Below, in pieces: positions 3,356 to 4,991 of a DNA stretch of 7,292 bases. The position numbers were made by a program, and so were the translations under genes. Positions within the stretch are counted from its first letter, which is position 1. Each line of letters starts with the position of its first letter. Below the pieces are notes generated by a model. It ran no database searches, was not told where the DNA came from, and saw only the letters and a list, made by a program, of their open reading frames with translations. This stretch comes from a virus: IMG/VR virus record IMGVR_UViG_3300029650_000039, positions 298 to 7,589 of that record, one strand, 5' to 3'.

Positions 3356-3384
3356 TTGACTTTTTCCTTTCTGTATGTTAAAAT
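3356..3384 (+). promoter_or_regulatory. Sigma-A-type promoter with extended -10, antisense to the operon
   Basis: TTGACT (3356-3361), a 17-nt spacer, then TGt-TAAAAT (3376-3384). A second TTGTGT-TTTAAT motif lies at 3389-3400. The promoter sits over the gp157 SD and start codon on the opposite strand. Confidence 0.6.
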
Positions 3385-3390
3385 ATCATT

Positions 3391-3450
3391 GTGTTTTAAT
3401 ATATGCCGTTAAACGGTATTACGGGGGAATTTAATTCCCCCGCTTTTTTA
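3391..3450 (+). ncRNA. Candidate ~60-nt antisense sRNA (as-1)
   Basis: Predicted TSS is about 3391. There is a small hairpin ATGCCG-TTAAA-CGGTAT, followed by a strong intrinsic terminator. The RNA would be complementary to the intercistronic mRNA between the 233-aa gene and gp157. Confidence 0.45.
3423..3449 (+). terminator. Intrinsic terminator, plus-strand specific
   Basis: The 19-nt near-palindrome GGGGGAATTTAATTCCCCC (3423-3441) can form an 8-bp stem with a 3-nt loop. It is followed by GC and then T6 (3444-3449). On the minus strand the hairpin is followed by GTAATACC with no U-tract, so it should not terminate the operon efficiently. Confidence 0.75.
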
Positions 3451-4152
3451 TTATTCAATTATATGTACGTTTTGTACGTCTGCAAGTAATTCTCTTAGCT
3501 TGTCCGCAACATTTTTTACTGCCTCACATTTCCAAGCTCCGCCGTCCGCCTCGAACAGTGCTGCTCTGCCGTCTTTAAGTCTGATTAAGAAATCACTTTC
3601 CGGTTGTTCAACCTCTAAAAATGTTCTGTATGGTTTCAACGTAACAATCGGCTTAATTCTCTGTTCACCTACCAACTGAATACCACTCTTGACGGTTGCC
3701 GATTGCGTTATACCGTCATCTTTCGTCTGAACCGATTGTTGGTCTGTTATGTTACCAAGCAATTGTACAAGATAATCTCTGTCCTCTGTCGGTGCAAAAC
3801 GTGATTTTAGACAGATAATCATATCTTCGATACTTATATAATCGTTGAAATCGAAACTGATGAATTTTGCATATGTAACATATGGTCTTTCACGTTGCAT
3901 ATCACATCTGACCGTACCCAATACATCAACCTGCTCCGGTGATACCACTCTCACGAATAATGGATTGTCATAATTGTTCATTTCTTGTTTCATCATAGTG
4001 ACTAAACCGCTTAGACTTGATAACTTAGTTGTATCAACCAATCTGTCCTCAATTCTGCGCAGTTGAAAGTCCGAAAACATGCCATAGTCGGTCTTAATCA
4101 CCTTTGGTCCTGTCATTTCTTCAATTTTTTCAATAAAACTTCTATCAATCAT
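3451..4152 (-). CDS. Phage protein of unknown function (possibly DUF2303/YfdQ-like; unverified)
   Basis: 233-aa ORF with ATG at 4152. Strong SD AAGGAGGA has a 7-nt spacer and lies 18 nt after the upstream stop. Composition is protein-like. The ...LKPYRTFLEVEQPESDFLIRL...FEADGGAW... segment reminds me of DUF2303, but I cannot verify that. Confidence 0.85.
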   Translation of the reverse strand: MIDRSFIEKIEEMTGPKVIKTDYGMFSDFQLRRIEDRLVDTTKLSSLSGLVTMMKQEMNNYDNPLFVRVVSPEQVDVLGTVRCDMQRERPYVTYAKFISFDFNDYISIEDMIICLKSRFAPTEDRDYLVQLLGNITDQQSVQTKDDGITQSATVKSGIQLVGEQRIKPIVTLKPYRTFLEVEQPESDFLIRLKDGRAALFEADGGAWKCEAVKNVADKLRELLADVQNVHIIE

Positions 4153-4170
4153 TTCTTTATCCTCCTTAAA

Positions 4171-4527
4171 TTACATTGCTTTCTTAATTGCTATAATCTT
4201 TGGCTCGTCTTGCTCCGAGCCGTCTAATGCCATTTGTCCCGGTACTTGTGGCAACATTTCGACTAATGCTTTGCCCTCATCCGATTCCGTCAAATACAAC
4301 GCACTTTCAATGTTGTTCGTTGGTGTCAATGTTGACTTAACCTGTGTTGACATTTTGATGTTCTGTCTTTCGCTGTCCGGCTTTAGTGACAACGTCAATG
4401 TTATCTTTCTTACTGCGTCCGCTTTGGTGTTTAGGTCGGCGATATTATCAACGACCTTGCTTAGCTCATAGTCCAATCTTTCACCGATTGCGCCACGAGC
4501 GACCTCTAATAAATTTGCATTACCCAC
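4171..4527 (-). CDS. Hypothetical phage protein (118 aa), GTG start
   Basis: An in-frame TAA at 4533..4531 caps the ORF, and the only start near its 5' end is GTG 4527. The SD is only purine-rich and weak (AAGAAAGAAA), unlike the GGAGG-type SDs of its neighbours. A TTG codon 17 codons downstream is an alternative start. Function is unknown. Confidence 0.7.
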   Translation of the reverse strand: MGNANLLEVARGAIGERLDYELSKVVDNIADLNTKADAVRKITLTLSLKPDSERQNIKMSTQVKSTLTPTNNIESALYLTESDEGKALVEMLPQVPGQMALDGSEQDEPKIIAIKKAM

Positions 4528-4544
4528 TTTTTATCATTTCTTTC

Positions 4545-4572
4545 TTGATTTTTTATTTTTTTGTGGTATAAT
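4545..4572 (+). promoter_or_regulatory. Sigma-A-type promoter with extended -10, antisense to the operon
   Basis: TTGATT (4545-4550), a 16-nt spacer, then TGg-TATAAT (4564-4572). It lies over the 5'UTR of the 118-aa gene on the opposite strand. Confidence 0.6.
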
Positions 4573-4581
4573 ATATGTAAA

Positions 4582-4599
4582 ACATAGATTAATCTATGT
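4582..4599. repeat. 18-bp perfect palindrome ACATAGATTAATCTATGT
   Basis: Read directly from the sequence. It lies at about +3 to +20 of the 4545-4572 promoter. Confidence 0.9.
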
Positions 4600-4609
4600 A
4601 ATTACCTTT

Positions 4610-4647
4610 GACCGTTTCGAGTTGCACCTCATACGGTCTCTTTTTTT
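4610..4647 (+). terminator. Intrinsic terminator, plus-strand specific
   Basis: GACCGT (4610-4615) pairs with ACGGTC (4633-4638). An inner GAG/CTC pairing closes a hexaloop. TC and then T7 (4641-4647) follow. On the minus strand there is no U-tract after the hairpin. Confidence 0.65.
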
Positions 4648-4889
4648 ATGCTGATTTTGCAATGGCAGCCTGCTCCAAGATTATCATTGCTTTTGTACAT
4701 TTCTGTTTGCTTAAAGGTTTCTTCTGCGTATATCGAACAGAATTTTAATAGTGTATCGCCAGTTTCCTTGTATTGATACATTGCTCTGAAAATCTTGCAC
4801 GCTTGCTCTATTGTTTCCGCCTCGATGATTATCCAGCCACCCTTAAATGGCTGTCCCTCACTGCCGAATGTAATGTAATAGTTATTCAT
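4629..4889 (-). CDS. Small hypothetical phage protein (86 aa)
   Basis: ATG at 4889 with SD GGGAGGTGA about 7-8 nt upstream. The N-terminus YITFGSEGQPFKGGW... resembles a common small phage protein family of unknown function (recall only). Confidence 0.8.
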   Translation of the reverse strand: MNNYYITFGSEGQPFKGGWIIIEAETIEQACKIFRAMYQYKETGDTLLKFCSIYAEETFKQTEMYKSNDNLGAGCHCKISIKKETV

Positions 4890-4895
4890 TCTCTT

Positions 4896-4991
4896 TCACC
4901 TCCCAATCATATTCATCATTATAAATTCTGTCATAATCAGTATCGCACTAAATGCAACAACCGATATAGCATACTTAATTTTTTCAGACAT
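4896..4991 (-). CDS. 31-aa hydrophobic membrane peptide (not in ORF track)
   Basis: Hand translation gives MSEKIKYAISVVAFSAILIMTEFIMMNMIGR*. SD GAGG lies 6 nt upstream. The start overlaps the upstream stop (ATGTCTGA, stop at 4986..4984). Its own TGA lies inside the SD GGGAGGTGA of the next gene. It exactly fills an otherwise empty gap. Confidence 0.6.
   Translation of the reverse strand: MSEKIKYAISVVAFSAILIMTEFIMMNMIGR

Follow-up and report, generated by a model that had tools for sequence, protein, structure and literature searches.

The window, as we call the whole 7,292-nucleotide (nt) stretch of DNA analyzed here, comes from the IMG/VR virus record IMGVR_UViG_3300029650_000039; it is a fragment of a temperate phage of Clostridia and covers most of a 7.6-kb viral contig. 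Opposite the early operon of this phage, which runs on the minus strand, the plus strand carries a compact unit consisting of a promoter, two hairpins and an intrinsic terminator, and this unit is conserved in relatives of the phage. The unit occupies the 101-base-pair (bp) gap, and the adjoining gene end, between two early genes that encode proteins of 86 and 118 amino acids (aa), the second of which forms a two-gene cassette with a gene of 233 aa; a sister unit lies on the far side of that cassette, at 3356–3450. Taken together, the sequence comparisons described below make it probable that the unit is a small antisense-strand gene, the product of which would be a cis-antisense RNA of ~69 nt that modulates the early mRNA at the junction of the two genes. 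The parts of the unit in the window are the following.

4545–4550, plus strand: −35 element TTGATT, adjoining the Shine–Dalgarno (SD) region of the 118-aa gene on the other strand
4562–4572, plus strand: extended −10 element TGTGgTATAAT (the TRTG "−16" motif and TATAAT at 4567–4572), 16 nt after the −35
4579–4647, plus strand: predicted antisense RNA of ~69 nt, its start placed 7 nt past the −10 and its end at the U-tract
4582–4599, plus strand: palindrome ACATAGATTAATCTATGT, a perfect 18-mer, read as a 5' stem-loop of the RNA with 7 bp and the loop UUAA
4610–4638, plus strand: terminator hairpin GACCGT-ttc-GAG-ttgcac-CTC-at-ACGGTC, with the stop codon of the 86-aa gene (4629–4631) inside it
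4639–4647, plus strand: U-tract TCTTTTTTT (TCT7), antisense to the (I)KKE codons of the 86-aa gene

Promoter and terminator in the window and in relatives

An earlier sequence-only reading of this DNA had described TTGATT-16-TGgTATAAT, a palindrome hairpin and GACCGT/ACGGTC followed by T7, and all of these elements are present where it had placed them. The predicted promoter has the features of a sigma-A (sigma-70 type) promoter of Firmicutes, namely a TTGACA-like −35, a spacer in the range of 16–18 nt, TATAAT and TRTG, and with the TG it scored 10/12 in our promoter scan. In the terminator hairpin the outer stem is formed by the pairing of GACCGT (4610–4615) with ACGGTC (4633–4638), and it encloses an inner GAG/CTC helix. 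The element has the form of an intrinsic terminator, although weakly so, in that a stem-loop is followed by a U-tract on the transcribed strand only; the minus strand of the window has no U-tract after the hairpin, which bears out the earlier description of a terminator specific to the plus strand. It is likewise the case that the terminator reaches ~20 nt into the 3' end of the 86-aa gene, stop codon included, with its T-run antisense to the KKE codons. A simple terminator scan omits this hairpin because its loop is too long for the stricter loop rule used there. Folding of a 72-nt RNA from the unit gave two hairpins (−17 kcal/mol; z = −4.6), and none of 200 shuffles reproduced an 18-bp palindrome, even when 3 mismatches were allowed. 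The predicted ~69-nt RNA contains no open reading frame (ORF), and reading of the sequences by eye revealed no conserved small ORF in either the antisense RNA or the sense spacer.

Promoter-like sites are not enriched as a class in the window (20 were found, against 25.7 expected); motif counts alone therefore prove little, and the case for the unit rests on conservation. An internal control is offered by a promoter-like site of equal score, ATTACA-16-TGcTATAAT at 4170–4197 on the plus strand, which lies in coding DNA, overlaps the last codons of the 118-aa gene and has a TATAAT that decays in several relatives (to TATAAC or TATTAT). This pattern suggests that the site is probably fortuitous. 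We considered it as the origin of a longer antisense RNA ending at the 4639–4647 terminator and rejected it on account of its place in coding DNA and its lack of conservation.

Relatives of the 118-aa gene were gathered from viral contigs, genomes and public assemblies (individual loci are designated below by L and a number); the genome contigs had to be retrieved with an alignment query, a scan with the single protein having returned nothing. A uniform scan for promoters and terminators covered 76 distinct upstream regions and listed only the best terminator of each. An antisense promoter followed by an antisense terminator was found in 40 of the 40 distinct regions with a GC content below 49%, down to an identity of 53% in the 118-aa protein. 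For 3 loci the hairpin listed by the scan sits further out, within the upstream gene, and the conserved hairpin and T-run beside the promoter are visible in their sequences. The antisense unit always accompanies the 118-aa gene, and in dinucleotide shuffles a promoter and terminator unit of this kind arose in 0–1 of 300 per intergenic region. The same uniform scan returned no sense promoter in the regions upstream of the 118-aa homologues (40 of low or middle GC content), and a candidate sense promoter, TTTACA-17-TATAAA, was discarded: it occurs in only a few relatives, lacks the invariant final T and is absent elsewhere.

The gap is near-identical in 45 close loci, including one in which the 118-aa protein is just 84% identical. 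Distant relatives (L211–L217 and L220, with 68–80% aa identity, as well as L204, L215, L205 and L218/L221) keep the layout with a different sequence, and five sequence-unrelated versions can be told apart: that of the GACCGT clade and those of L204 (72% aa identity), L215 (72%), L205 (53%) and L218/L221 (56–57%). On the opposite strand the distant relatives carry TTGATT or TTGACT, an interval of 16–17 nt and TATAAT or TATACT, usually with TRTG; the promoter is often followed by an inverted repeat and then by a GC hairpin with a T-run, and the predicted RNA in relatives measures 52–69 nt. Among 11 distinct versions the mean pairwise identity was 0.97 for the −35 (TTGATT in 10 of the 11, TTGACT in L205), 0.95 for the −10, 0.54 for the spacer and 0.41 for the next 7 nt, and the length of the spacer was constant at 16–17 nt. 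Hexamers that are conserved while the spacer between them drifts at a fixed length are the pattern expected of a promoter. Within the close clade, the mean pairwise identity in the gap is 0.78–0.89, compared with 0.62–0.83 in the adjacent coding DNA; it is lowest in the SD and start segment (0.63) and highest from the −10 to the terminator (0.84–0.89). Retention of the −10 and the terminator in homologues had been proposed as a test by the sequence-only reading, and both are kept by close and distant homologues that have the flanking gene.

It could be supposed that these motifs coincide by chance in AT-rich intergenic DNA, and the unenriched class of promoter-like sites, together with the evidently fortuitous site at 4170–4197, lends itself to that view. 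A chance origin is at odds with the shuffles, with the retention of the unit in five diverged versions and with a conservation that is specific to the hexamers. Judged by these comparative data, which effectively refute chance, the observation is real and coincidence very unlikely.

Strand, palindrome and module boundary

Several features of the terminator hairpin point to the antisense strand. An A-run lies 5' of the hairpin, in the direction of the genes, in every version and whichever gene lies upstream, and in no version does a U-tract adjoin this hairpin on its 3' side in that direction. Read as antisense RNA, the terminator hairpins contain 21 G·U pairs, versus 4 when they are read as sense RNA. 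In 12 of 15 variants it is the antisense strand that folds into the more stable hairpin, by a margin of 3.4–9.7 kcal/mol in four independent versions (L205, L215, L218 and L221).

The palindrome is present as a single copy in all 161 loci that carry one, and further copies of ACATAG..CTATGT were found in none of the loci, including the immunity regions that were fetched. Relatives keep the arms ACATAG and CTATGT around a loop that changes both in sequence and in length (5, 6 or 7 nt), and this varying spacing of the arms favors a 5' stem-loop of an RNA over an operator. Stem-loops at the 5' end commonly stabilize Gram-positive transcripts. At the position of the palindrome L204 and L215 have unrelated inverted repeats and L205 has none, and in L218 and L221 the repeat overlaps the −10. 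Exact matches to the palindrome in two unrelated contigs (L120 and L121) were set aside as chance.

The same sequences can be read in the direction of the genes, with the palindrome as an operator for a dimeric regulator and the GC hairpin as a structure that stabilizes or processes the mRNA, possibly acting as a weak sense terminator. The perfect 18-mer does sit at +4 to +21 of the promoter, and L204, L215, L218 and L221 have inverted repeats that coincide in part with the −10 or the start; in L204 and L215 the inferred start lies within the repeat, which leaves some room for an operator. The window itself is among the 3 exceptions with respect to stability, its GC hairpin being slightly more stable on the sense strand; a sense hairpin followed by TTTT (−6 to −7 kcal/mol) occurs in part of the close clade, and a stable structure in relatives of high GC content, described below, often favors the sense direction. 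However, the palindrome occurs once per locus with no second copy in the immunity regions that were fetched, whereas operators of dimeric phage repressors usually recur at immunity promoters; its arm spacing varies by 1–2 nt, which is poor for a dimer site, and the sense T-run is lost in L220, L204 and L215. Reading the gap in this direction also leaves the conserved A-run and the hexamers on the opposite strand unexplained, and we regard it as highly improbable.

At least seven unrelated ORFs (41–105 aa, mostly hydrophilic; 86 aa in the window) hold the position upstream of the gap. They enter the A-run and the left stem and end in the hairpin or just past it, with the C-terminal tails KKETV, KKKTV and KEKDR; such fused ORFs were seen at 4610–4647 of the window and in L003, L110, L211, L214, L216 and L220. 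That unrelated proteins end in common tails indicates a constraint on the terminator as nucleic acid and not on the proteins. In some loci the stop codon is shifted, and the ORF extends into or through the hairpin (ending in …KEKTVIAATQ or …KENDRQSWHS).

The apex of the terminator is alike on different outer stems in the window and in L110, L211, L215, L218, L221 and L205, where a U·G closing pair surrounds a UGCA, UGCC or UGGC tetraloop (…GUUGCAGC…, …GGUUGCCGCC…). On the sense strand the bases of this apex encode Ala-Ala-Thr near the C-termini of several unrelated upstream ORFs.

The exact joining of these many upstream genes at the A-run raises the question of whether the block serves chiefly as a DNA linker between modules, at which mosaic phages recombine, its resemblance to a promoter and a terminator being secondary. 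At the sister unit, similarly, at least five different genes begin directly past the −35 (GTCAAATG) across relatives, and the near-identity of the block in the 45 close loci, including the one with the 84%-identical 118-aa gene, is also what a linker would show. A linker needs sequence identity, however, and five unrelated versions keep the hexamers, the 16–17-nt spacing, the hairpin and the one-sided T-run, and the strand-specific G·U pairs constitute a signal at the level of RNA. We think it quite unlikely that joining is the main function of the block; the roles of linker and of antisense RNA are in any case mutually compatible.

A further possibility is that the promoter matters only as DNA. 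Polymerase bound to it or firing from it would block the polymerases of the early operon, or be dislodged, and would thereby dampen leaky transcription in the lysogen; the RNA would have no function, and the terminator would merely keep the antisense transcript short. In both units it is indeed the promoter, and not the RNA, that overlaps the ribosome-binding site (RBS) or the start region of the following gene, conservation is strongest in the hexamers, and the 5' hairpin is absent in L205, L218 and L221. The transcribed parts are nevertheless conserved beyond what termination needs, as seen in the linker TACC(T)TTGACCG, the arms of the 5' hairpin and the apical U-UGCN-G loop, and the segment from the −10 to the terminator has the highest identity within the gap. 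A role of the promoter as DNA alone is, in our estimate, unlikely.

A number of observations weigh against the antisense RNA gene that we favor. In the window, in addition to the sense-strand preference of the hairpin already mentioned, the terminator is the weakest of all versions (−9.6 kcal/mol, with a 6-bp outer stem and a U-tract 2 nt off the stem); the terminator hairpins of relatives range from −11 to −25 kcal/mol. The inferred start of the RNA falls inside the 5' inverted repeat in L204 and L215, which would shorten the hairpin. Stems are invariant within the close clade, so that there is no classical covariation and support comes instead from the wholesale replacement of sequence in other lineages; the independent evidence accordingly consists of five sequence versions and not of dozens of lineages. 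About 35 nt separate the predicted start at 4579 from the SD (~4537–4544), and in every version promoter DNA fills the space up to the SD; the RNA therefore cannot mask the RBS, no RBS is covered in any version, and the simplest antisense mechanism is excluded. For the window and 7 relatives no Rfam family reached its gathering threshold, the weak matches (to snoRNA and miRNA families, and to the SR6 antitoxin with an E value of 5.6 on the sister unit) being taken as noise or a loose resemblance. Finally, the unit is absent from relatives with a GC content of 50% or more and from cultured Firmicutes phages with the same gene pair, from which it follows that the unit is not essential to the cassette.

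At the position of the gap, the relatives with a GC content of at least 50% have either a very stable, GC-rich structure or overlapping genes. The structure takes up the ~70–105 nt that immediately precede the SD of the 118-aa homologue in L206, L171, L172, L174, L181, L182, L184, L188 and L209, which are Oscillospiraceae or Dysosmobacter-type, and it is long-stemmed (−52 to −66 kcal/mol). Its outer helix shows compensatory differences (CCAGCC/GGCTGG, CCTGTCC/GGCAGG and CCGACC/GGCCGG), the sense direction is the more stable one in 4 of 6 cases, and the structure has no match in Rfam.

Proposed action of the RNA and the cassette between the units

For the antisense RNA we propose the following course of events. 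The near-consensus sigma-A promoter would start transcription near 4579, and the RNA would begin with the 5' stem-loop, which probably stabilizes it, and end at the intrinsic terminator over the stop codon of the upstream gene, yielding an untranslated transcript of ~69 nt. Across the cistron junction the predicted RNA and the polycistronic early mRNA show perfect complementarity. The RNA would most likely act in cis by pairing with the early transcript, probably starting from complementary hairpin loops, and the resulting duplex would present a double-stranded target for RNase III. Such pairing-dependent cleavage could alter the stability of the message or its read-through into the 118/233-aa cassette and, behind it, the genes for recombination and replication, whichever direction the regulatory effect may take. 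The RNA may be active in the lysogen, for example against incoming phages that carry the block, and some genes may gain or lose expression through it. Polymerase sitting at the antisense promoter or firing from it may also interfere with sense transcription, and the twin unit at 3356–3450 would close the cassette on its far side. Pairing in trans between the linker UACCUUU and SDs of the AAAGG type was considered as well and rejected, being too short and not conserved beyond the close clade.

The sequence-only reading had tied the unit to the weak initiation of the 118-aa gene, and that connection fails: relatives with an ATG start and AAGGAGG keep the unit, and the GTG start with a weak SD is limited to the closest clade. 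At the SD itself (4537–4544, minus strand) the window has GAAAGAAA (AAAGAAA), versus GAAAGGAA (AAAGGAA) in 45 of 45 close relatives. A single G-to-A change (plus-strand position ~4539) thus deletes the sole GG of the SD in the window, and it is either a private mutation of the contig or an assembly error.

The genes around the two units, and the sister unit itself, are placed in the window as follows.

3356–3450, plus strand: sister unit, TTGACT-17-TGtTAAAAT, with a small hairpin and the strong terminator CGGGGGAATTTAATTCCCCCG followed by T6
3451–4152, minus strand: 233-aa gene, phrog_1029, partner of the 118-aa gene
4171–4527, minus strand: 118-aa gene with a GTG start, phrog_997 "replication terminator", Pfam PF27127 YfdP (from a precomputed table)
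4629–4889, minus strand: 86-aa gene, phrog_28990, its last ~20 nt under the terminator; one of at least seven unrelated genes at this place

That 3356–3450 holds a second unit of the same kind had been part of the earlier description, and this unit too is conserved. The next gene has the −35 of this unit between its SD and its ATG; relatives have TTGAC(T/A), an interval of exactly 17 nt that includes the complement of the SD of the next gene, and a TRTG-extended −10. Its terminator is strong, is found on the antisense strand only and abuts the stop codon of the 233-aa gene. Since the sister unit is equally conserved, the 118/233-aa pair is flanked on both sides by an antisense unit, each with mosaic joints at its outer edge.

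Homologues of the 233-aa protein with ~37% identity are present in four cultured phages, Paenibacillus phage Hayley, Bacillus phage phiS58, C. tetani phage phiCT19406B and C. perfringens phage CpeS-1181. These four phages lack the upstream unit because just 0–32 nt precede their 118-aa homologue. Some cultured phages have hairpin and T-run elements in antisense orientation after the gene pair. In phiS58 (L224, KT970646.1; B. cereus group) a mini-unit on the opposite strand is found at 2661–2807, two genes downstream of the 233-aa homologue, and it consists of TGTGtTATAAT, ~40 nt, TACCCATCTCGCAAATGGGTA and T6.

It is conceivable, if doubtful, that the paired antisense units are the ends of a mobile cassette and serve both as joints for gene swaps and as sources of small RNAs (sRNAs) that are expressed from the prophage and pair with the early mRNA of an incoming phage. 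If this were so, foreign ORFs would have been fused in frame into the terminator, gaining the KKETV tail, and the units would provide an RNA-based superinfection immunity in which the five sequence versions are specificity types.

The early operon on the minus strand consists of small genes of 93, 71, 31 and 86 aa followed by those of 118 and 233 aa, beyond which lie genes for Gp157/Gam-like, Sak4-like and DUF669/SSB-like proteins and a primase-helicase. The hydrophobic 31-aa ORF MSEKIKYAISVVAFSAILIMTEFIMMNMIGR, at 4893–4991 of the window on the minus strand, is absent from the ORF list; its ATG start and the stop codon of the 71-aa gene overlap (ATGTCTGA), and its 3' end holds the SD of the 86-aa gene. 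The segment 4893–4991 thus codes for protein and should not be counted as a third non-coding unit. In relatives, CI-like genes (helix-turn-helix with an S24 or M78 peptidase) and Cro-like genes are located upstream, and the phages are therefore temperate. Strong SDs of the GGAGG type and one Clostridia metagenome-assembled genome with the block point to Clostridia as hosts.

Textbook examples of small antisense RNAs that adjust early gene expression in temperate phages come from lambda and P22. To our knowledge, very few have been reported in the abundant but uncultured temperate phages of gut Clostridia, and the unit described here represents a candidate RNA family in dozens of gut viral contigs. 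Its layout is unusual in that two units surround a widespread two-gene cassette (a YfdP-like gene and its partner) with each promoter nested in the translation-start region of the next gene. Moreover, the unit marks the exact splice point of unrelated genes and so provides a handle on regulatory RNA genes that coincide with mosaic recombination joints. If the RNAs are expressed in lysogens, they may affect prophage stability or cross-immunity in the gut.

Comparison with known antisense RNAs

A search of 50,697 phage records returned no similar DNA, and the comparison with known systems is one of layout. The antisense unit resembles, above all, the gene for the OOP RNA of phage lambda, a short untranslated RNA of 77 nt that is made from the promoter pO (PMC12197685, PMC5869508) and is RNase III-dependent (PMC12197685). 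Like OOP, the predicted RNA would have its own promoter for the housekeeping sigma factor and an intrinsic terminator, would be of similar size (~50–80 nt from promoter to terminator) and would oppose the early operon of a temperate phage just ahead of a replication and recombination block; the two also agree in that the promoter is placed where the following gene starts and the transcript stops over the 3' end of the preceding one. Unlike OOP, the unit has no sequence or Rfam relationship to that RNA, belongs to a phage of Clostridia and not of an enterobacterium, and occurs as one of a pair that brackets a two-gene cassette. The overlapped upstream gene is here variable and is not a regulator of the cII type, which makes the junction or the genes downstream, and not the upstream gene, the probable target. 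With respect to RNase III in Firmicutes, one study reports its action on sense/antisense pairs of prophage genes in Bacillus (PMC3531473).

The sar RNA of P22 (68/69 nt; PMC12197685) is an antisense RNA of the same size that is likewise intercistronic, its promoter lying where the downstream gene begins and its terminator where the upstream gene ends. Whereas sar covers the RBS of ant and blocks translation, here the promoter DNA alone overlaps the SD. A translational antisense RNA of the sar type was rejected, as the predicted RNA is not complementary to the downstream RBS in any version.

Plasmid countertranscripts (pGA1, RF00236, and those of the pT181, pIP501 and pMV158 types) are also antisense RNAs of 50–80 nt from Gram-positive elements, made from the leader of a replication-related gene, and they share with the RNA predicted here stem-loops that could start a kissing interaction. 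Unlike them, the unit shows no conserved attenuator or alternative leader fold on the sense strand, and it lies at a junction in a phage operon and not in a rep leader. The antisense unit of L218 (1889–1960, minus strand) gave 28.1 bits (E = 0.09) against the pGA1 family, for which the threshold is 45, and the window gave no match; among the Rfam results this is the sole resemblance that comes near to being meaningful. Identity with a plasmid countertranscript was rejected on this score, and also because the sense hairpin with TTTT is marginal and not conserved.

The antitoxin RNAs of type I systems in Bacillus prophages (RatA, SR4 and SR6) are similar insofar as they are small antisense RNAs of Firmicutes prophages that overlap a small gene at its 3' end; they differ in that the genes overlapped here vary and are not small hydrophobic toxins. 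We rejected a type I toxin–antitoxin system, given that the upstream ORFs are of at least seven unrelated kinds and mostly hydrophilic. Among the known systems, then, lambda OOP is the closest in layout, and the best reading of the comparisons is that the unit represents a putative and hitherto unannotated family, without a match in Rfam, of OOP-like cis-antisense sRNAs of phages.

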